From contig JAZOMF010000094.1 in NCBI GenBank assembly GCA_045653805.1, positions 7,438 to 71,437 on the forward strand: 64,000 nt of DNA, given 5' to 3'. Below are positions 1,285-21,679 of the stretch, piece after piece. Within the stretch, counting starts at the first letter, position 1. Each line of letters starts with the position of its first letter. Origin of the DNA: Eubacteriales bacterium (GTDB lineage: Bacteria; Bacillota; Clostridia; Oscillospirales; CAG-272). The notes below the pieces were generated by a model that made no database searches, was not told where the DNA came from, and worked only from the letters and a program-made list of their open reading frames with translations. A program made the translations under genes and the position numbers.

Positions 1285-1339
1285 TTTTTTGGATAATTAT
1301 CACAAAAATGAAAAAAATAAAATTTTTTTAAAAAAAGTA

Positions 1340-1368
1340 TTGCATTTGAGTAAAAAATGTGGTATTAT
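1340..1368 (+). promoter_or_regulatory. sigma-A promoter of rpsT
   Basis: TTGCAT (1340-1345), 17 bp, TATTAT (1363-1368) with extended TG. Confidence 0.7.
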
Positions 1369-1457
1369 ATATCAGTATGCGGCGGCAAAGCCTGATGTAC
1401 CCTCTCAGACGGAGGGCGCGCCGAGCATTTTTAAAAATTTATACGGAGGTTGAGAAA

Positions 1458-1724
1458 ATGCCGAACATTAAATCCGCAAAGAAGCGTGTAAAAGTTACTC
1501 AGAAGAAGACTCTTCAGAACAAGATGTTCAAGTCTGCTATGAAGACCGAGATCAAGAAGTACTACGCTGCAGTTGCTTCCGGTGATATGGCAAGCGCACA
1601 GGCTGCTTATAAGTCTGCTTCCAAGAAGATCGACGTTGCCGCATCCAAGGGCATTATCCACAAGAACGCCGCTGCTCACAAGAAGAGCCAGTTCACTAAG
1701 GCGCTCAACGGTATGCAGAAGTAA
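1458..1724 (+). CDS. rpsT: 30S ribosomal protein S20
   Basis: MPNIKSAKKRVK...KGIIHKNAAAHKKS; SD GGAGGT upstream of ATG 1458. Confidence 0.98.
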   Translation: MPNIKSAKKRVKVTQKKTLQNKMFKSAMKTEIKKYYAAVASGDMASAQAAYKSASKKIDVAASKGIIHKNAAAHKKSQFTKALNGMQK

Positions 1725-1793
1725 TTCTACAAAAACCACAATCAGCAAAATCAAGGTTGCTATCCTAACCCAATAGTAACTAAAAGCATAAAT

Positions 1794-1828
1794 AGAGGTA
1801 TGTAGGGCGCTCACCCCTGCATACCTCT
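1794..1828 (+). terminator. Intrinsic terminator after rpsT
   Basis: AGAGGTATGTAGGG / CCCTGCATACCTCT stem followed by a T-rich tract. Confidence 0.7.
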
Positions 1829-1890
1829 GTTTATTTTTATGCTGTATTCGGATAGGCTTTTTGAAAAATATGCGATTTCTAAAAAATCAC

Positions 1891-1919
1891 TTGAAAATAG
1901 ATAAAAAATATGATAAAAT
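1891..1919 (+). promoter_or_regulatory. sigma-A promoter of the darA-like gene
   Basis: TTGAAA, 17 bp, TAAAAT with extended TG. Confidence 0.55.
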
Positions 1920-1983
1920 GAATATGTATTTAATATAGAATGTGTTTGAATTTGTATTTGAGCAAATGGAAAGAGGTGTGAAT

Positions 1984-2289
1984 ATGAAGATGATAACTGC
2001 AATCGTAAATTACAAGGATACCAATAAAGTTTGTCAAGCTCTTTCCGAAAAAGGCTTCGAACATACCCGTCTTGCTACTACAGGTGGATTTTTACGCGCA
2101 GGGAATACCACATTGCTTATTGGTGTTGATGATGCAAAACTCGACGAAGCGCTTGAGATAATTCACAACAACTCTAAGAGAAGAAAAGAAACTGTTCCGG
2201 CAGAATTGTCTGTCGGTGGAACCGGCGAGGTAATGGTCGGCGGTGCTATCGTGTTCGTTACCGAAGTCCAGAGATTTGAGAAATATTGA
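1984..2289 (+). CDS. darA: PII-like cyclic-di-AMP receptor (DarA/PstA/YaaQ family)
   Basis: MKMITAIVN...TRLATTGGFLRAGNTTLLIG...VGGAIVFV; SD GAGGTG. Confidence 0.9.
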   Translation: MKMITAIVNYKDTNKVCQALSEKGFEHTRLATTGGFLRAGNTTLLIGVDDAKLDEALEIIHNNSKRRKETVPAELSVGGTGEVMVGGAIVFVTEVQRFEKY

Positions 2290-2301
2290 TTAAATAGTAT
2301 A

Positions 2302-2336
2302 ACAAAACGTCCGCCGATTTCGGCGGACGTTTTGTG
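2302..2336. terminator. Bidirectional terminator between convergent darA and prfB
   Basis: ACAAAACGTCCGCCGA / TCGGCGGACGTTTTGT inverted repeat with A/T tracts on both sides. Confidence 0.85.
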
Positions 2337-2347
2337 TTTTTATTGAA

Positions 2348-3457
2348 TTATTTGTTAGCATTCATTTTGAGGTAAGCATTAACAAAGCCGTCGATGTTAC
2401 CGTCCATAACAGACTGGATGTTACCGTCCTCATATCCTGTTCTGGTGTCCTTAGCAAGGGTATAGGGCATAAATACGTAGGAACGGATCTGCGCCCCCCA
2501 CTCAATGTTGGTCTTGTTACCCTGAATTTCTTCAATGGTGTCAAGGCGCTCGCGGAGCTTGATCTCCATCAGCTTTGCCTTCAGCATTTTCATAGCAGTC
2601 TCCTTATTCTGGAGCTGGCTTCTCTCGGTCTGACAACCTACAACGATACCTGTGGGCTTATGAACGATACGGATCGCAGAGTCGGTCTTGTTAATGTGCT
2701 GACCACCCGCACCCGAGGAACGGTGAGCGGTGATTTCAAGGTCTTCGTCGCGAAGAATTACGGTGTCAACGTTCTCAAATTCGGGCATTACCTCGATAGA
2801 GGAGAAGGAGGTCTGGCGTCTGCCTGCCGAGTCAAAGGGAGATACGCGGACAAGACGATGAACGCCGTTTTCGCTCTTGAGGTAGCCGTATGCATTAACA
2901 CCCTCGACGGTAATGGTTGCGGACTTAATTCCAGCCGCATCGCCGTCCAGCCAGTCAACCAGCTTTACCTTAAAGCCTGACTTTTCTGCGTATCTGGTGA
3001 TCATTCTGTAAAGCATCTGCGCCCAGTCCTGAGCCTCTGTTCCGCCTGCACCGGGATGGAAGGAAACGATGGCGTTGTTCTTATCGTATTCCTCGCAAAG
3101 AAGAACCGCGATTCTTTCCTTTTCTGCGGTAGCTTCTATCTCTGCAAGCTCGCTTTGAACCTCGTCAACAAAGCTGTCGTCGTTTTCCTCGATTGCCATT
3201 TCCGCAAGAGCGATAGCGTCCTCAAGGCGAGAACAAAGCTTGTCGTAGTCGTCGATGGTGTCCTGAGATTGCTTTATTTCCTGAGTTATTTTGTTTGCCT
3301 GGTCGGGATTGCTCCAAAAATTTGGGTCAAGGGTCTGCGCGCTAAGCTCAGATACCTTGGCTTTAAGGTCAACGATGCGGAGCGCGTTGCCAAGCTCCTT
3401 TACGTCGCCTCTCATATCTATAAGCTTTCTTTTTGCTTCTTCAAGTGCAATAATCAT
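2348..3457 (-). CDS. prfB: Peptide chain release factor 2, continuous ORF
   Basis: GAGGTEAQDW, GVHRLVRVSPFDS (SPF anticodon mimic), GGQHINKTDS; SD GAGG before ATG 3457. Confidence 0.97.
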   Translation of the reverse strand: MIIALEEAKRKLIDMRGDVKELGNALRIVDLKAKVSELSAQTLDPNFWSNPDQANKITQEIKQSQDTIDDYDKLCSRLEDAIALAEMAIEENDDSFVDEVQSELAEIEATAEKERIAVLLCEEYDKNNAIVSFHPGAGGTEAQDWAQMLYRMITRYAEKSGFKVKLVDWLDGDAAGIKSATITVEGVNAYGYLKSENGVHRLVRVSPFDSAGRRQTSFSSIEVMPEFENVDTVILRDEDLEITAHRSSGAGGQHINKTDSAIRIVHKPTGIVVGCQTERSQLQNKETAMKMLKAKLMEIKLRERLDTIEEIQGNKTNIEWGAQIRSYVFMPYTLAKDTRTGYEDGNIQSVMDGNIDGFVNAYLKMNANK

Positions 3458-3600
3458 TAGTTTTATCCTCGTAAACATATTTCTTCAGCATAATTATACC
3501 ACAAGTTTTAGCATTTTGCAAGACCTTTTTTCGTCTTTTGAATACTTTTTACGAAAAGGCGAAAAATATTTTTGGATAGCGAAAATATGGCGCGTTTCTA

Positions 3601-3629
3601 TTGACTTTTTTATAATAAAGTTATATAAT
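3601..3629 (+). promoter_or_regulatory. sigma-A promoter of the DUF1858 gene cluster
   Basis: TTGACT, 17 bp, TATAAT. Confidence 0.7.
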
Positions 3630-3669
3630 AGTATATGTAAAAATATGTCTTTAAGGAGGTCAAACAAGA

Positions 3670-3870
3670 ATGAAGGTAACTAAGGAATCCATCATTGGCG
3701 ATATTCTCGATTACGATAGAGGAACTGCAGAGTTTTTCTTTGAGATCGGTATGCACTGCCTCGGTTGTCCCGCTTCTCGCGGAGAGTCTATCGAAGAGGC
3801 TTGCGCGGTACACGGAACCGATGCGGACGAGCTTGTGGAGAAGATCAACGCGTATCTTTCCGATAAGTAA
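3670..3870 (+). CDS. DUF1858 domain (hybrid-cluster-associated) small protein
   Basis: FFEIGMHCLGCPASRGESIEEACAVHG signature; SD AGGAGG. Confidence 0.9.
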   Translation: MKVTKESIIGDILDYDRGTAEFFFEIGMHCLGCPASRGESIEEACAVHGTDADELVEKINAYLSDK

Positions 3871-3876
3871 GTCGAT

Positions 3877-3910
3877 ATATGCGAAGTCTTCCTCAGAAGA
3901 CTTCGCATAT
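3877..3910 (+). terminator. Hairpin after the DUF1858 gene
   Basis: Perfect 15-bp stem ATATGCGAAGTCTTC / GAAGACTTCGCATAT with 4-nt loop; no strong U-tract on +. Confidence 0.55.
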
Positions 3911-3938
3911 ACGAAAAAAACAAATTTTAGGAATAATT

Positions 3939-4628
3939 ATGGTACTCGATATAAGATTACGCACGGCGGCTGATATGGTGCCAAGGGGTGCGCGACTTGC
4001 CGACATCGGCAGTGACCATGCCTATTTGCCTATCGCTCTGTGCCTGGAAAATAAAATAGAATGTGCGCTGGCGTCGGACATCAACGAAGGGCCTGTCCGG
4101 GCGGCGGTTGCAAATATACATAAAAACGGCTTAGGTGACCGCATTGTGGCGGTACGAGCCGACGGACTTGACAAAACGAGAGACTTCGCCCCAAACTGCA
4201 TAACCGTGCTGGGTATGGGCGGCGAGCTTATCGTTTCCATTCTCGATAAGGCGGATTGGGTAAGGAAGGAAGGCATCACCCTGGTGCTTCAACCTATGAC
4301 TCACCCCGAAATTCTTGCCAAATATCTTGCCGAAGAGGGCTTTGACGTCATCGGCGAGAAGATCGTGCGCGACGGCACGAGAGACGATCGCATCTATCGC
4401 ATCATCTGCGGGAAATTTGACGGAAAAAGACGAGCATTGACCGAGGCTGAGGCACTTGTGGGTAAGATCAATCTTGCAAGCGGTGACGATGTGGCGAGAG
4501 CGTATATCGAAAGAATAATTCGCGTTTTCTCGGTGAGAATCGCAGGCAAGAGCGGCGTAGGAGCGGATGCATCTTTTGAAGAGAGCATTGTGAACGAATT
4601 GAAGTCCTACCTTGAAAGGAATTTTTGA
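3939..4628 (+). CDS. trmK: tRNA (adenine(22)-N1)-methyltransferase
   Basis: RLADIGSDHAYLPI, DINEGP, GMGGELI, LVLQPM motifs; precedes the Nif3 gene as is usual in Bacillota. Confidence 0.93.
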   Translation: MVLDIRLRTAADMVPRGARLADIGSDHAYLPIALCLENKIECALASDINEGPVRAAVANIHKNGLGDRIVAVRADGLDKTRDFAPNCITVLGMGGELIVSILDKADWVRKEGITLVLQPMTHPEILAKYLAEEGFDVIGEKIVRDGTRDDRIYRIICGKFDGKRRALTEAEALVGKINLASGDDVARAYIERIIRVFSVRIAGKSGVGADASFEESIVNELKSYLERNF

Positions 4629-4630
4629 TT

Positions 4631-5410
4631 ATGACAGTAATTGAACTTTACAATAAACTTGGCGAGATAATACCCGCGTCACTCTCCTGTCCTTGGGATA
4701 AGGACGGACTTGAAAGCTGTCCAGAGCCGCAGAAGGAGGTCAAAAAGATACTTATAACCCTTGACATAACGAACGCGGCTATCGATCGAGCGATCGAGGG
4801 CAACTTTGACGTGATCGTGTCTCATCATCCCGTCTTTTTCGGCGGACTTGGTGTAATGAACGCGTTGACCTTCGACGGAGCAAAGGCGGTAAGACTTGCA
4901 AGGAACAATATCGCGGCGATGTCATTCCATACCAGACTTGACGCGCGCGAGGACGGGGTTAATGACACGCTTGCCCGTCTTTGCGGTCTGAAAAATATCG
5001 AGATCATCGGTGATGATAAGGTTGCGCGCGTGGGCGAGCTTGATGAGGAGATAGCTCTCTCGGATTTTGCGAAAAAGGTTAAATCCGTACTCTCCTATGG
5101 AAGCGGTGAGCGTGAGGCAACTCTCACGGTCTGCAACGTAAACGGCAAGGTCAAAAGAGTTGCGCTTGTCGGCGGATCGGGTGGGGACATGATGAATCTC
5201 GCCAAGGAAGCGGGAGCCGACACCTATCTCACGGGTGATGCCAAGCACCACGAGTATCTCGGCGCGTACGATTTCGGAATAAACCTTATCTGCGCAGGAC
5301 ATTTCTTTACCGAGCATCCCGTATGCGAATATCTCGATAAGACGCTCGGCGAGATATGTCCCGACACACAGCGCGAGATATATTTTTCAAACCAGATGAT
5401 AACAATTTAA
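4631..5410 (+). CDS. Nif3-like dinuclear metal centre protein (YqfO/YbgI family)
   Basis: WDKDGL, TLDIT, IVSHHPVFF, HTRLD, LTGDAKHH, AGHFFTE motifs. Confidence 0.93.
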   Translation: MTVIELYNKLGEIIPASLSCPWDKDGLESCPEPQKEVKKILITLDITNAAIDRAIEGNFDVIVSHHPVFFGGLGVMNALTFDGAKAVRLARNNIAAMSFHTRLDAREDGVNDTLARLCGLKNIEIIGDDKVARVGELDEEIALSDFAKKVKSVLSYGSGEREATLTVCNVNGKVKRVALVGGSGGDMMNLAKEAGADTYLTGDAKHHEYLGAYDFGINLICAGHFFTEHPVCEYLDKTLGEICPDTQREIYFSNQMITI

Positions 5411-5430
5411 AGATTTATTGGAGAATAGAT

Positions 5431-6117
5431 ATGACTTACGTAGTGGCAAATTTACACGGAAATTATACGAAATTCAAGCAGCTTTTAAAGACTATCTCGT
5501 TCAAGGATACTGACATTATGTACGTCCTCGGAGACATCGTTGACTACGGCGATGAGAGCATGGAGCTTATCGGAGACCTCAGCATTAGATACAATATTTA
5601 TCCTATCGTAGGTGAGCACGATTACATAGCACTCAAGATGCTTTCGGGTTTTGAGGGGATGCTTAAATCGGGCGAGACTCCCGATAAAAAGTTCATCACC
5701 AAGATGACGGAGTGGGTTCAAGACGGCGGACAAAGCACTCTTGACAGTTTCCGAACTCTTGACGCTGAAATGAAGGAAGGCGTTATTGATTACCTCACCG
5801 ACATGACCATTTACGAGGAGACCGAGGTGAAGGGCAAGAAGTATCTTCTTGTTCACGCGGGAATTGCGGGATATAAGAGCGGAATGGAGCTTGAGGATCT
5901 TAAGCCCAATGCGTTCTTTACCGAGCCTCTTGATTTTACAAAGAGATATTTTGATGACGTAACCGTTATCGTAGGTCACAATCCCACAACCGAGGAAAAC
6001 GGCGGCGACGGCAAGATATTCTACGGCAACGGAAGTATCGCCATCGACTGCGGCGAGGCGAGAGGCGGCACTATCGGTTGCCTCCGTCTTGACGATGGAA
6101 AAGAATTTTACGTTTGA
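5431..6117 (+). CDS. Calcineurin-like metallophosphoesterase (PrpA/ApaH-like) with altered active-site motifs
   Basis: LHG, GDIVDYG, GEHD, LVHAGI, VGHNPT, IDCG motifs of the PPP-type fold. Confidence 0.8.
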   Translation: MTYVVANLHGNYTKFKQLLKTISFKDTDIMYVLGDIVDYGDESMELIGDLSIRYNIYPIVGEHDYIALKMLSGFEGMLKSGETPDKKFITKMTEWVQDGGQSTLDSFRTLDAEMKEGVIDYLTDMTIYEETEVKGKKYLLVHAGIAGYKSGMELEDLKPNAFFTEPLDFTKRYFDDVTVIVGHNPTTEENGGDGKIFYGNGSIAIDCGEARGGTIGCLRLDDGKEFYV

Positions 6118-6129
6118 TAGGTAAAAGCT

Positions 6130-7521
6130 GTGAATATAAAGAAAAACGATATAATCGAGCTTGATATAACCGACCTCAATAATTTAGGTTGCGGCGTGGG
6201 AAAGACCGATGACGGCGTGGTTGTGTTCGTTAAGGGTGCGGTCACGGGTGACCGAGTCGCGGCGAAGATAATCAAGGTGTCCTCAAGCTTTCTTGTGGGC
6301 AGGCTCGAAAAGATACTTGCAAGCTCGCCCAACCGTATGGACGGAAATGGGTTGAGAACAACCGATTGCAAAGCGCCCCAATCCTGCGGCGGTTGCATTT
6401 ATAGAAATATCAAGTATGAGCACGAGCTTATTTTGAAGCGTGACTACGTTAAAAACGCATTCCGCAAGGCGGGACTTCCCAATGTGGTGGTGCTTGATAC
6501 GGCGCACACCGACCGTGTGACGGGCTACCGAAATAAGGGTCAGTACCCCGTGAGAGAGGTGCAGGGCAGAGTGAGAGCGGGATTTTTCGCTGCTAAAACT
6601 CACGATCTTATCCCTTGCGAGAGCTGCTTGCTTCAACCAGATATTTTTGGTGAAATAGTGACCTTTGTCACTGATTTTGCCGAGAAAAATAAGATAAGAG
6701 CATACGACGAGGAAAGCGGACGCGGCATTTTGCGCCACATATATCTCCGAATTGCCGAAAAAACGGGTCAGATCATGGTTTGCCTCGTTATAAATGCGGA
6801 TAAAATGCCCGCAAGTGAGAAGTTTGCCGCCGAAGTGGTCGAAAAATTCCCCTCGGTGACCTCGGTTATGCTCAACGTAAACAAAAAGAATACAAACGTT
6901 ATCCTCGGTGAGAAATTCATCTGCATCGGGGGCAACGATTACATAATCGACGAGCTTTGCGGCTTGAATTTCAAAATTTCGGCAGGCTCGTTCTATCAGG
7001 TCAACCGCGACGGCGCGGAGATGCTCTACGGTCTTGCCAAGGAGAGAGCTGCGCTGACAGGCAAGGAAACTGTTGCCGACCTTTATTGCGGTGCAGGTAC
7101 TATCGGGCTTTCCATGGCTAATGACGCGGAGAGAATCGTGGGCGTTGAGATAGTTGACGAGGCGGTTGAGTGCGCTAAGGAAAATGCAAAGCTCAACGGC
7201 ATAGAAAACGCGTATTTCTTTTGCGGCGATGCGTCCGATACAAGAGGACTTTTGGCAACGGCGAAGGATACTCTTGGCGATTTCTGCCCAGACGTGGTAA
7301 TTATCGACCCGCCCAGAAAGGGAACTACCGAGGAGCTTATAAATTATCTTGATTCTCTTGGCGTCAGAAGAATAGTTTACGTCTCCTGTGGCCCCGACAC
7401 GCTGGCGCGCGATTGCGCTTGGTTTGCCGCAAGGGGATATTCTATCGGCGAGGTTACGCCGGTTGATTTATTCCCCGGCACTGGGCACGTGGAAAGTGTC
7501 GTATGTCTGACGAGAAAATAA
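6130..7521 (+). CDS. rlmD: 23S rRNA (uracil(1939)-C5)-methyltransferase
   Basis: TRAM domain, CGGC Fe-S motif, SFYQVN, DLYCGAGTIGL, DPPRKG, YVSC, DLFPGTGHVE. Confidence 0.96.
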   Translation: MNIKKNDIIELDITDLNNLGCGVGKTDDGVVVFVKGAVTGDRVAAKIIKVSSSFLVGRLEKILASSPNRMDGNGLRTTDCKAPQSCGGCIYRNIKYEHELILKRDYVKNAFRKAGLPNVVVLDTAHTDRVTGYRNKGQYPVREVQGRVRAGFFAAKTHDLIPCESCLLQPDIFGEIVTFVTDFAEKNKIRAYDEESGRGILRHIYLRIAEKTGQIMVCLVINADKMPASEKFAAEVVEKFPSVTSVMLNVNKKNTNVILGEKFICIGGNDYIIDELCGLNFKISAGSFYQVNRDGAEMLYGLAKERAALTGKETVADLYCGAGTIGLSMANDAERIVGVEIVDEAVECAKENAKLNGIENAYFFCGDASDTRGLLATAKDTLGDFCPDVVIIDPPRKGTTEELINYLDSLGVRRIVYVSCGPDTLARDCAWFAARGYSIGEVTPVDLFPGTGHVESVVCLTRK

Positions 7522-19130: not shown

Positions 19131-19657
19131 ATTTCAGAGAAATAGCATTGGCAAGACAGTCTTGCCGCAAATATAATAAAACGAGAGAGGTGGAGTCGGA
19201 AAAGCTTTCTGCAATTCTTGAAACCGGCAGACTTTCTCCCTCTGCCTGCAACGGTCAGCCCTATCATATCACTGTTTGCCGTGGCGAGAGCGCATCGCAG
19301 GTGGCACGGGCAGTCATGGGCATGGGAATGAACAAGTTTGCCGCAGATGCACCTATATTGCTGGTTATCTCCGAAGAGGATTACGTTGCCAGCGCGGCAC
19401 TGGGCGCAAAGGTCAAGGGCAACGATTACCGCTCTATGGACATCGGAATACTTGTGGCGTACATTACCGCAGAGGCGACGGCGCAGGGGCTTTCTACCTG
19501 CATTCTAGGTTGGCTCGACGATAAGAAGATACGCGAAATATGCGGTCTTTCAAAGCCCGTAAGATTGGTTATCACTCTCGGATATGCCATAGATGACGAT
19601 AAGCTCCGTGAGAAAAAGCGCAAGAGTCTTGATGAGCTTGTAAGCGAGAAAGTGTGA
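19127..19657 (+). CDS. Nitroreductase family protein
   Basis: RQSCRKY, SPSACNGQP, GLSTCILG, ITLGY, RKSLDELV. Confidence 0.93.
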   Translation: MNFREIALARQSCRKYNKTREVESEKLSAILETGRLSPSACNGQPYHITVCRGESASQVARAVMGMGMNKFAADAPILLVISEEDYVASAALGAKVKGNDYRSMDIGILVAYITAEATAQGLSTCILGWLDDKKIREICGLSKPVRLVITLGYAIDDDKLREKKRKSLDELVSEKV

Positions 19658-19661
19658 CCGA

Positions 19662-19967
19662 ATGACAAAGGTTAGAATAACCGTTATGTGCCGCGCGGAG
19701 CATGCCGCTCTTATCGAAAAATATGAAAACCCCTTGGAAAATCCTTGTGAAATGACCGTTGGCGACGTTTTCGTGTCGGTGAATGCGGAAAAGCCCGAGG
19801 GAATGTGTTCGGTGGCGTGGGACTGTATGTACGAGTTTGTCAAAACTCTCGCCGAGGGTGGAGGAAACTTTTTCGATGGCTGGATGAAAGACCCTTACTC
19901 TGCAATGGTAAGCTGTAACGATGGATTTCGCCCCGTGACTTATTATATCGAAGCGATAGATGAATAA
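19662..19967 (+). CDS. TIGR04076 family protein
   Basis: KVRITV, ENPCEM, KPEGMC..AW, SCNDGFRPV signature. Confidence 0.88.
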   Translation: MTKVRITVMCRAEHAALIEKYENPLENPCEMTVGDVFVSVNAEKPEGMCSVAWDCMYEFVKTLAEGGGNFFDGWMKDPYSAMVSCNDGFRPVTYYIEAIDE

Positions 19968-20022
19968 GCAAAAGAAGGAGCATAAAGCGGACTTCTCATA
20001 AGGATGTTTGGATATTCTTCTT

Positions 20023-20049
20023 GTAGGGGTCGACGTCCTCGGCGACCCG
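20023..20049 (+). repeat. GTAG-family REP copy 1
   Basis: GTAGGGGTCGACGTCCTCGGCGACCCG: GTAG foot plus GGGTCG/CGACCC hairpin. Confidence 0.92.
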
Positions 20050-20280
20050 TTAAGGAAAATTTGATCCGCAGAAGACAAATAGATAACCCCGACAGATTTT
20101 TAAATTCTGTCGGGGATCATTTTATTCTGTTAGATAAATTGTATTTATCCAACTGTATTCAATTTGAAGATACCACCTTGAAAAACAATATCATTTCCTT
20201 GAGCATCTTTGTAAAACGATACATTTTCCGTTAACTCAAAGCCTAAACTCTTTAATAAGGATAGGCAAAGCCCATACCTC

Positions 20281-20796
20281 TTATTCTTCTGCATATAATT
20301 CATCGAAGTACCAGCGGACAGGGTTTTCGTAAATGTATTTCGCGATCTCCTCGTAATCCTTTCGTCCTCTGATAACGTGATCGTAAAATCCTCGTTGCCA
20401 TATATTCTCGCCGTATTCTTTATTGCAAAATCTTTTGAACGTCGATACAAAATGCGACACGAATGACGTTTGCTTTGTAGGGGTCGACGTCCTCGGCGAC
20501 CCGTCCTCATGAACAAACAATATAAGATGGATATGGTTTGGCATAATAACGTATTGATCTACGGTTAAATTTTCATAAAATTCATTCATTTGTTTTATGT
20601 ATTTATCCGCAACCATTCCGCGTGGCAACAATTCCACGTTCTGCGGGTCGCCGAGGACGTCGACCCCTACGATTCGAGATAAAATCTGTCGCCTTTTGTC
20701 CGTGCAAATCGTTATAAAATATGCACCTGTTGTGTTGTAATCAAATGCCTGTAACCTGGTAGGTTTTCTTTTCGGCACTTCATTTTCTTTATCCAT
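20281..20796 (-). CDS. REP-associated tyrosine transposase (RAYT, HUH/Y1 family)
   Basis: RKPTRLQAFDY..GAYFITICT, MPNHIH (HUH), FKRF, WQRGFYDHVIR, YIYENP. Confidence 0.92.
   Translation of the reverse strand: MDKENEVPKRKPTRLQAFDYNTTGAYFITICTDKRRQILSRIVGVDVLGDPQNVELLPRGMVADKYIKQMNEFYENLTVDQYVIMPNHIHLILFVHEDGSPRTSTPTKQTSFVSHFVSTFKRFCNKEYGENIWQRGFYDHVIRGRKDYEEIAKYIYENPVRWYFDELYAEE
20477..20503 (+). repeat. GTAG-family REP copy 2, inside the RAYT CDS
   Basis: Identical 27-mer; read as (D)GSPRTSTPT on the coding strand. Confidence 0.92.
20644..20670 (-). repeat. GTAG-family REP copy 3, inside the RAYT CDS
   Basis: Identical 27-mer on the minus strand; read as VGVDVLGDP. Confidence 0.92.
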
Positions 20797-20866
20797 TTTC
20801 ATCACCCATTTCATTATAACACAAATCGGCAGAGAAAACAATATCTCTGCCGAAATTTGGTTGTGG

Positions 20867-20893
20867 CGGGTCGCCGAGGACGTCGACCCCTAC
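20867..20893 (-). repeat. GTAG-family REP copy 4
   Basis: Identical 27-mer on the minus strand. Confidence 0.92.
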
Positions 20894-20944
20894 GGTGTAA
20901 TCATCCTTATGTAAATTTGCGCCAATACTCCTTCTTTTAGTTTG

Positions 20945-21673
20945 TCATAGATTGATATTGACCTTTTCAACCATTTTCCTCTTGTCTTTATAGTCTGGCA
21001 CGAAGGGGGAAAGCTCGGCATAATAGCTTTTAGAGTGATCCGGATGAATAAAATGTGTAAATTCGTGATATACCACGTATTCGATGCAATCCACGGGGGC
21101 GTGAACGAGAGCGTAATTGAAGGTCAATATCCTTTTGGTTGAATTACAGCTGCCCCAACGGCTCTTCATGTGCCTGAATTTTATTTCGGGCATATCGGGT
21201 ACATATTTTGTAAAGCATGGATGTGCGTCGGTGCAAATGCTCTCTATCATTTCTCGGCATAGCTCGTCAAGGTGCTTTTGCAAAAGTCTTTTCTTCAAGT
21301 CGATGTCCTCGGTATCCTTGACGGTAAGAACAAGATTACCTCCTACCATTTCCACTCGGTTTTTGCTTCCTTTTTGGATAGAGAGCGGAATAGGATCGCC
21401 AAATATTATGATATTGTTGACGTCATCGAGCCCGACAAGAATTTTTTGTGCAGATGACGACAAATCTTCGTATTTTTGCAGAGCAGAGAGGATAAAATCA
21501 GATTTTTCCATAAGTATTCTGTCTATATCCCCTTGTGATACTTTCATCGGCGCCGAGACGTGAACTGTAAGATCGCGTTTTATTCGAATGTTGACATTTT
21601 TGACTTTTTTTCGTTGCAGGTCATATTTTACCGCCCTGCCTGATAAAATGATAGATTTTGTCATTTTGATCAT
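20945..21673 (-). CDS. M48/SprT-like (YgjP type) zinc metallopeptidase
   Basis: RKKVKNVNIRI, MKSRWGSC, YVVYHEFTHFIHPDHS; exact start uncertain (21664-21676). Confidence 0.9.
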   Translation of the reverse strand: MIKMTKSIILSGRAVKYDLQRKKVKNVNIRIKRDLTVHVSAPMKVSQGDIDRILMEKSDFILSALQKYEDLSSSAQKILVGLDDVNNIIIFGDPIPLSIQKGSKNRVEMVGGNLVLTVKDTEDIDLKKRLLQKHLDELCREMIESICTDAHPCFTKYVPDMPEIKFRHMKSRWGSCNSTKRILTFNYALVHAPVDCIEYVVYHEFTHFIHPDHSKSYYAELSPFVPDYKDKRKMVEKVNINL

Positions 21674-21679
21674 CAAGCT

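Follow-up and report, generated by a model that had tools for sequence, protein, structure and literature searches.

RAYT genes, which encode tyrosine transposases linked to repeats known as REPs (repetitive extragenic palindromes), are generally viewed as domesticated, immobile and single-copy. Their only mobile products are considered to be the REPs and REPINs. A RAYT gene in an Eubacteriales bacterium (assembly GCA_045653805.1) raises the question of whether such a gene can travel as part of a discrete unit. The gene lies in a stretch of 64,000 nucleotides (nt) of contig JAZOMF010000094.1, hereafter the window, between two convergent genes encoding a TIGR04076-like protein and a YgjP-like, M48-type metallopeptidase (the M48 gene). 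Region 19984–20927 of the window is probably a REPtron-type cassette that occupies the loop of a bidirectional terminator shared by these two genes, and the RAYT would move the unit as single-stranded DNA into terminator loops. Strains of the species differ in whether they carry the cassette, and its relatives occupy the loops of unrelated terminators and carry varied cargo.

The initial annotation described the RAYT gene as bounded by inverted composite arms, each composed of an outer box (box1), a second box (box2) and a REP. These arms are exact. The motif AAAAGAAGGAG-N16-CATAAGGATG, representing box1 and box2, occurs twice in the window, at 19970–20006 on the plus strand and at 20902–20938 on the minus strand, with 0 occurrences expected by chance (100 shuffles of the window). 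Each copy stands beside an exact GTAG REP, GTAGGGGTCGACGTCCTCGGCGACCC, located at 20023 (+), 16 nt inside the left box2, and at 20868 (−), 8 nt inside the right box2. As also described, the unit occupies the whole gap between the convergent stop codons at 19967 and 20945, and no direct target duplication surrounds it in the window sequence or in the empty-allele contigs presented below. A search of the 1.76-Mb genome for the full box1-N16-box2 pattern found no copy beyond the two arms of the window; matches to a relaxed pattern were discarded as unrelated A/G-rich coding or Shine-Dalgarno regions. An Rfam scan of 19600–21300 at a permissive threshold gave two chance-level small RNA matches far under the gathering scores, and the arms thus correspond to no known RNA family.

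The origin of box1 is revealed by alleles that lack the cassette. Four publicly available runs of gut metagenomes, three of one study (X1, X2 and X5) and one of another (X6), contain contigs in which window position 19983 is joined to 20974 via 51 nt, TTTGCTCCTTCTTTTGCTTTTATTATAGATCAATGTTGATTTTTGCAAGAT. In depth these contigs match the flanks; they align over long sides, with 98–99% identity between the flanks and the window. The empty allele reads ...TAA-AT-AAAAGAAGGAGCA-TTT-TGCTCCTTCTTTT-GCTTTTATTA..., in which box1 pairs with its complement, box1', as a 13-bp hairpin of −17.1 kcal/mol on either strand, followed by the T tract GCTTTTATTA. The loop between box1 and box1' measures 3–7 nt. The hairpin sequence, AAAAGAAGGAGCATTTTGCTCCTTCTTTT, is wedged between the two stop codons, and the rest of the 51 nt corresponds, in diverged form, to the final codons of the M48 gene. 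The occupied allele was found in runs X3 and X7. The empty TIGR04076–M48 site whose existence the initial annotation had proposed to look for is therefore real, and the reading of the interval as a discrete unit with defined ends beyond the REPs is also supported.

A sister species, G015, whose TIGR04076 protein is 87% identical, has the hairpin AAAGAAGGAGC-GTAATTAAT-GCTCCTTCTTT intact directly after the TIGR04076 stop codon. The RAYT cassette of G015 (84% RAYT protein identity) resides on another contig, within a different inverted pair, AAAAAAGCGCCG/CGGAGCTTTTT. Terminator hairpins are also found 3' of the TIGR04076 orthologues in six related genomes. The box1/box1' sequence has the features expected of an intrinsic bidirectional terminator: a stem-loop that is preceded by an A tract, is followed by a T tract and exists without the insert. 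In the window, the left box1 (19970–19980) is the 5' half of this stem and lies outside the cassette, downstream of the TIGR04076-like open reading frame (ORF; 101 residues, 19662–19967, plus strand). The right box1 (20928–20938) is the 3' half, followed by the T tract of the stem and by the M48 gene (20945–21676, minus strand; Pfam PF01863, E = 8e-45). The insert has thus separated the two boxes, which are the halves of a host terminator stem, by 950 bp. Because box1 stays in place in the empty allele and in the sister species, it is not a feature of the element.

The corresponding sites of two other genomes, G001 and G046, were considered as empty sites and set aside as not clean. In G001 (L037, 1800–2140), the TIGR04076/M48 intergenic space holds other long palindromic repeats, GGGGGAAAGGGGCTG...CAGCCCCTTTCCCCC. 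In G046 (L032, 1800–2090), it holds a long palindromic repeat, GCCTTCTCCAGCGGAGAAGG..., together with an extra reductase-like gene. This intergenic space is a recurrent landing place.

A second cassette is present on contig C79 of the same genome. It shares the ends, REP variant, promoter hairpin and terminator of the window copy and carries a different cargo gene. The C79 cassette splits the inverted pair AAAAGAAAAAAGAGGG/CCCTCTTTTTTCTTTTT directly after a tRNA-Val gene. At the orthologous tRNA-Val/DegV site, genome G049 contains the intact hairpin AAAAGAAAAGAGAGGG-TTCAT-CCCTCTCTTTTCTTTT, and equivalent intact long hairpins occur in G009, G041, G042 and G045. Orthologous loci were identified through the DegV and TIGR04076 neighbours because the exact outer stems are species-specific; when 39 genomes from the genus were searched by pattern, the outer hairpins of C79 and of the G043 and G008 cassettes were found nowhere in unoccupied form. 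Metagenomes contain the C79 cargo in runs X1, X2 and X4 and lack it in X3. No long metagenomic contig spans the C79 site, and the sole skip joint seen there was discarded, as one of its sides is just 21 nt.

The same arrangement is found across the family. Locus-specific inverted repeats of 11–18 nt bracket ten of the 11 cassettes scored in ten genomes, and the repeats are accompanied by an A run outside on one side and by a T run on the other. Mismatched pairings of left and right outer repeats averaged 1 nt and did not exceed 4. The family therefore follows the rule that cassettes insert into bidirectional terminator loops.

In contrast to box1, box2 is a true end of the cassette, and the proposal of conserved terminal boxes beyond the REPs is partly supported. 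Box2 recurs at other RAYT loci and in other genomes, but box1 does not. The conserved core of box2 is TTCTCATAAGGA(T/A), 12–13 nt in length, and the originally delimited CATAAGGATG is its 3' part. At least 12 related genomes carry the core, on about 27 ends altogether, and it is itself a mini-palindrome, TTCT-CATAA-GGAA. Two types of REP-bearing end are distinguished by the sequences on either side of the core. The promoter-side end has the order TTAGGCTSG-core-spacer-REP and leads into a 10-bp hairpin and the promoter motif TGTTATAAT. In the window it corresponds to TATTGGCGCAAA plus the box2 variant TTTACATAAGGAT at 20903–20927 on the minus strand (family consensus TTAGGCTSG-TTCTCATAAGGAT). 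The terminator-side end has the order AAAGCGGAC-core-GTTTGATTTCTCCTT-REP and leads into a terminator formed by CCCCGACAGA...TCTGTCGGGG. Its window copy, at 19984–20006 on the plus strand, consists of AAAGCGGAC and the box2 core TTCTCATAAGGAT(G), and the type is kept in C79 and in G041, G043, G053, G001, G008, G010, G048 and G044. The subterminal REP hairpins of the window, at 20023–20048 (+) on the left and 20868–20893 (−) on the right, are exact copies of one REP variant, termed C, and are separated from the core by 8–16 nt. A third end type has no REP, and its core sits at the tip of a strong hairpin that faces inward and has a T run (about −20 kcal/mol). The stem of this hairpin covaries, being GCCCAAC/GTTGGGC in one form and GCGAGAC/GTCTCGC in the other.

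The insert spans about 19984–20927, approximately 945 bp, with the junction placed approximately. The 9-nt tips differ between the two ends and are not complementary; on the sense strand of RAYT they read 5'-TTAGGC ... GCTTT-3'. TTA stands just before or at the start of most promoter-side ends, and the terminator-side ends finish with TTT, although these cut points are approximate. A target duplication of the IS630/IS5 type (TA/TTA) was considered and rejected, since the right flank is TTT rather than TA and the outer sequences are inverted.

Two further structures were observed at the ends of related loci. Beside the REP-less end and upstream of the cargo gene, L055 (G043:C30), L058 (G053:C23), L059 (G008:C130) and L021 (G041:C11) contain an array of short, differing stem-loops whose units are separated by (A/T)GTGATATT, for example ...GAGTGATATTCCGACTCCGTCGGAGTGATATTGTCGCTGACGCGACAGTGATATT.... 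At L083 (2470–2500; Oscillospiraceae metagenome-assembled genome (MAG) SIG616), which carries the closest RAYT outside the genus set (82% identity), TTCTCATAA is fused directly to TGATATGGGTGATGA. This junction has the appearance of a deletion lying between box2 and the −10 box, in which the REP, the hairpin and the greater part of the promoter would have been lost.

Alignment of the cassettes yields a common plan that is sequentially composed of an end, one or more REPs, a hairpin, an extended −10 promoter, the RAYT gene, a linker, a second variable gene, a terminator, a REP and the other end. The cassettes range from 0.95 to 1.4 kb. The conserved linker is GGGTATGGGCTTTGCC...GTAATACAAAGGCGAAAC.GGCGATAAA, and its initial part, GGGTATGGGCTTTGCC, follows the RAYT stop codon in the window, C84, L002 and L087, preceding an intact cargo ORF in the latter three. 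Complete forms, with RAYT and cargo between both ends, are found in G015 (L002) and in an Oscillospiraceae MAG (L087). The window copy has kept its RAYT gene (20281–20796, minus strand), and the second gene survives as a truncated remnant that, with the post-RAYT linker, occupies 20145–20280 on the same strand. RAYT-less copies retain the promoter and the post-RAYT linker. Their cargo varies and includes a helix-turn-helix membrane protein, a YcxB-like protein, a nucleotidyltransferase, lipoproteins and unknown proteins; RAYT is the only cargo that recurs. The records of 80 related RAYT loci are titled as uncultured Oscillospiraceae, Acutalibacteraceae or "Clostridia", from ruminant and other guts.

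As read from the sequence, the RAYT gene has its own internal promoter, a predicted extended −10 element, TGTTATAAT, at 20813–20821 on the minus strand, behind a hairpin. The hairpin, of 10 bp at 20826–20853, lies directly upstream of the promoter, was flagged on both strands by a terminator scan, and is predicted to be an inward-facing, terminator-like insulator. RNA runs contain little of this stretch, in the form of undirected contigs. In C79, C84, L002, L005, L087, L089, L121 and L143, the combined hairpin-plus-TGTTATAAT module likewise stands upstream of a RAYT or cargo gene. Its word depth in gut metagenomes (20813–20853) is 1300–6200, versus about 5 for the flanks; given a depth so far above that of the flanking genes, the module is extremely common across the community, beyond the source species. 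At the other end of the cassette, the hairpin CCCCGACAGA-loop-TCTGTCGGGG (20087–20115) is predicted to end the minus-strand RAYT/cargo transcript. The simple terminator scan did not flag this hairpin; its module is the most widely conserved part of the arms in the genus.

The RAYT protein, of 171 residues from MDKENE, is a Y1 HUH protein with HIH at residues 88–90 and a YIYENP tyrosine motif. It matches Pfam Y1_Tnp over the curated cut-off (E = 8e-6), and its best relative in the PDB is E. coli TnpAREP (4ER8, E = 6.5e-7), to which the regions of the HUH and tyrosine motifs align. The gene itself contains two more exact copies of GTAGGGGTCGACGTCCTCGGCGACCC. One, at 20477–20502 (+), encodes GSPRTSTPT in frame just after the HUH motif, a segment that is a 10-residue insertion relative to E. 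coli TnpAREP. The other, at 20645–20670 (−), encodes VGVDVLGDP in frame before the motif. The end REPs of the window cassette are identical to this intragenic pair. The genome-wide REP count that the initial annotation called for gives six copies of variant C, all within the two cassettes: four at cassette ends and two inside the window RAYT gene. Of the four cassettes in the genus set that bear a RAYT, three (L001, L002 and L009) have end REPs equal to the intragenic REP, as does L087 at its promoter end, and the matching sequence itself differs between these genes.

Two other REP variants, A and B, differ from C at 2 and 5 positions and are present in about 35 copies each. The RAYT paralogue encoded on contig C18 has variant B as its intragenic REP; for variant A, the assembly yielded no corresponding RAYT. 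These variants, GTAGGGGACGACGTCCTCGGCGTCCC and GTAGGGGACGGCGCCCTCGACGTCCC, account for about 72 copies genome-wide (for example C28:7510-7619, C8:17557-17666 and C62:34111-34220), mostly as REPIN-like doublets (two REPs around a 58-nt spacer) to which more CTAC-tagged hairpins are attached. Contig ends hold many of these copies, which thus break the assembly.

RAYT genes of the clade carry their own REP as an in-frame, perfect inverted pair flanking the HUH motif, with examples in the same genome (C18:5864-6496 and C84:58726-59220) and at loci L002–L020 and L083–L162. The pair varies among paralogues and remains complementary within each gene. An exact inverted repeat of 18–31 nt is present in 17 of 19 RAYT homologues of the genus or order. 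Among 80 broader homologues, the exact repeat reaches 18 nt or more in 32, and in most others the pairs are shorter and include GTAGGG. No mention of an intragenic inverted REP pair was found in the RAYT literature searched. The REP-encoded segment before the HUH motif is tandemly expanded, with the frame kept, to two copies in C18 (6225–6337) and in L020 (G011:C27), and L010 (G018:C24) contains four 87-nt units of it. This tandem in-frame expansion suggests that the intragenic REPs behave like active repeats. REP-to-REP joints in metagenome contigs over the RAYT region were rejected as recombination products; their short sides and unequal depths suggest repeat-induced assembly links from other organisms.

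These features suggest how the cassette might move. The RAYT, as a Y1 HUH nuclease and ligase of single-stranded DNA, would recognise the subterminal GTAG REP hairpins together with the conserved ends and would move the unit in single-stranded form into the exposed loop of a folded terminator hairpin. Such a route would leave no target duplication and would permit seamless loss, as with enzymes of the IS200/IS605 type. The inward-facing hairpins at the ends would replace the terminator function broken by the insertion, and RAYT-less cassettes would be non-autonomous or fossil derivatives. RAYT is likely the motor of the cassettes, because variant C is restricted to the cassettes and the RAYT gene, the end REP equals the intragenic REP, and RAYT is the only recurrent cargo. 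Cleavage and rejoining of REPs has been demonstrated for E. coli TnpAREP (reported in PMC3333891 and PMC8266576). That the unit is an autonomous element, a possibility raised by the initial annotation, is plausible but unproven. It is conceivable, though we would not favour it over its negation, that REPtrons of this kind still transpose whole through RAYT acting on single-stranded DNA. They would then constitute expression cassettes of about 1 kb in Oscillospiraceae-type gut bacteria, specific to the loops of intrinsic terminators, equipped with their own promoter and replacement terminators, and accompanied by passenger-carrying non-autonomous derivatives.

Several observations weigh against movement of the cassette by its RAYT. 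Direct evidence of transposition, such as circle junctions, excision reads or biochemistry, is lacking, and the junction cannot be placed to a single nucleotide. The genome has just two cassettes, and REP variant C is not dispersed. The REPs are inverted, unlike the same-strand hairpins of IS200/IS605, and the classical peel-and-paste geometry is not directly applicable. Some ends are without any REP (the right end of L002, L063 and ends of the H type), and box2 occurs at only 7 of 74 broader RAYT loci. Four nearly complete genomes, G041, G043, G048 and G053 (96–97% complete), contain cassettes without a RAYT homologue. The final ~30 nt of the M48 gene are also unlike between the occupied and the empty allele; owing to this difference in adjacent sequence, the polymorphism may be old or may have spread as a whole haplotype by homologous recombination. 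Finally, 12 of 14 outer-stem bases are common to the cassettes of G043 and G008, whose loci are not homologous. We attribute this similarity to chance or to a target preference, since both cassettes of the window genome have intact hairpins at orthologous sites.

Part of this evidence fits an alternative in which the cassette is discrete but RAYT is a passenger or former resident. The cassette would then spread from strain to strain by homologous recombination of its flanks, exchange cargo via the promoter and terminator modules, or be mobilised by an unlinked enzyme that recognises the TTCTCATAAGGA ends. We consider this explanation rather unlikely, yet by far the most serious competitor. It would account for the genomes with cassettes and no RAYT, for the different cargo genes of otherwise similar cassettes, and for the greater constancy of box2 relative to the REPs, which some ends lack. 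The rarity of box2 at broader RAYT loci (about 10%) points the same way, and haplotype replacement predicts the difference in host sequence adjacent to the two alleles. However, homologous recombination cannot place cassettes into the loops of unrelated terminators at non-homologous loci. A passenger role is also at odds with RAYT being the sole recurrent cargo, with the retention of the RAYT promoter and post-RAYT linker in RAYT-less copies, and with end REPs that equal the intragenic REP of the RAYT gene. If the unlinked enzyme were a DDE-type transposase, the absence of a direct repeat at the ends would argue against it.

Two further explanations concern the outer repeats, and both are highly improbable. 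In one, proposed by the initial annotation, box1-N16-box2-REP is a single composite terminal arm whose fixed geometry represents a protein-binding site or a pair of inward-facing alternative-sigma promoters giving sense and antisense RAYT transcripts. The identity of both boxes and of the 16-nt spacing on the two sides of the window copy is in its favour. The spacing, however, is a property of that copy: related copies place CATAAGG between 12 and 16 nt from the outer stem, and no fixed binding geometry is therefore apparent. Moreover, box1 persists as an uninterrupted hairpin in the empty allele and G015, and unrelated locus-specific stems replace it in every other cassette. A consensus promoter scan found no sigma-70-like site in either arm, and the conserved internal promoter already explains RAYT expression. 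In the other explanation, the outer inverted repeat is the element's own travelling outer helix, and the "empty" hairpins are excision footprints or solo forms. In its favour, the G043 and G008 cassettes, which have no detectable flank homology, share AAAAAAGAACC(A/G)C(G/A) on both sides with compensated differences, and the outer stems of the window (contig C94) and C79 are both purine-only. Against this, G015 keeps the C94 stem, and G049 keeps the C79 stem after the same tRNA-Val, with no trace of a cassette. The two closely related cassettes of one genome differ in their outer stems, and the 39 genomes hold no free hairpin of the G043/G008 type. Insertion of a RAYT-driven cassette into pre-existing terminator loops accordingly remains the preferred explanation.

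The cassette resembles several known systems. Like the REPtrons, as described by Ton-Hoang et al. (2012, PMC3333891) and Quentin et al. (2018, PMC6006769), it combines a Y1 HUH protein of the RAYT class with inverted GTAG REPs on both sides, has one gene per REP variant and shows no target duplication. REPtrons as characterised in these reports are stable and do not move as a unit. The window unit, in contrast, is present or absent as a whole among strains, its G015 orthologue is at a different site, and its relatives are found at unrelated sites. Its cognate REP is confined to six copies within cassettes rather than the tens to hundreds of dispersed copies typical of REPtrons. The extra conserved ends outside the REPs, the passenger genes and the terminator-loop location are additional differences from those descriptions.

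In the TIRtrons, or TIRYTs, and the composite repeats of Pseudomonas reported by Di Nocera et al. (2013, PMC3733652), a RAYT-like gene is enclosed by terminal inverted repeats (TIRs) that are longer than, or unrelated to, the REP. That report also describes composite arms, made of a degenerate GTAG unit and another stem-loop, flanking Pseudomonas RAYT genes. Composite arms as such are therefore not new. The window family has a conserved inverted core of 12–13 nt outside its REPs; this core, TTCTCATAAGGA, differs from the GGGGWSAS motif of those TIRs (PMC3733652) and is shorter; REPs are present as well, and the ends carry distinct end-specific stretches. Terminator-loop location, empty sites and cargo derivatives do not appear in the portions of PMC3733652 considered here. 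More broadly, the searched portions of the RAYT literature contain no terminator-loop location, matching empty sites, two distinct end types or passenger derivatives, though this absence is no proof of novelty.

IS200/IS605 elements share with the cassette a Y1 HUH enzyme, subterminal hairpins, the lack of terminal duplication and, on the proposed reading, seamless loss and non-autonomous derivatives. In IS200, a terminator-like hairpin at the left end blocks read-through into the transposase gene. The cassette differs in that both its REPs and its box2 sequences are inverted rather than forming hairpins on the same strand, its protein belongs to the RAYT class and not the insertion sequence (IS) class, and it is present in very few copies. 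For a conserved flanking tetranucleotide there is no more than a hint, the TTA on the promoter side. DDE-type IS elements and miniature inverted-repeat transposable elements are distinguished by the sequences outside the ends, which are inverted and not direct in the ten bracketed cassettes. Hairpin-defined insertion at gene ends, a neutral location, is known for group II introns after intrinsic terminators and for IS1397 and ISKpn1 in REP loops. Those elements use a reverse transcriptase or a DDE transposase and leave different end structures.

Presence and absence of the cassette among strains is unusual for a gene class thought to be immobile. At this locus, a naturally occurring RAYT unit has sharply defined ends, a matching empty site in conspecific strains and a sister species, sibling cassettes in other terminator loops, and passenger derivatives. 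The locus also supplies concrete substrates for biochemistry, namely the two end types, the REPs and a hairpin-loop target, and thereby a simple assay for RAYT-dependent excision and insertion. An insert can occupy the loop of a terminator while bringing hairpins that may take over termination, and this occupancy bears on why REP-like repeats gather at the 3' ends of genes. If REPtrons of this family do transpose as whole units, they would represent a missing link between IS200/IS605 elements and domesticated RAYTs, and an undescribed route by which single accessory genes are shuttled.

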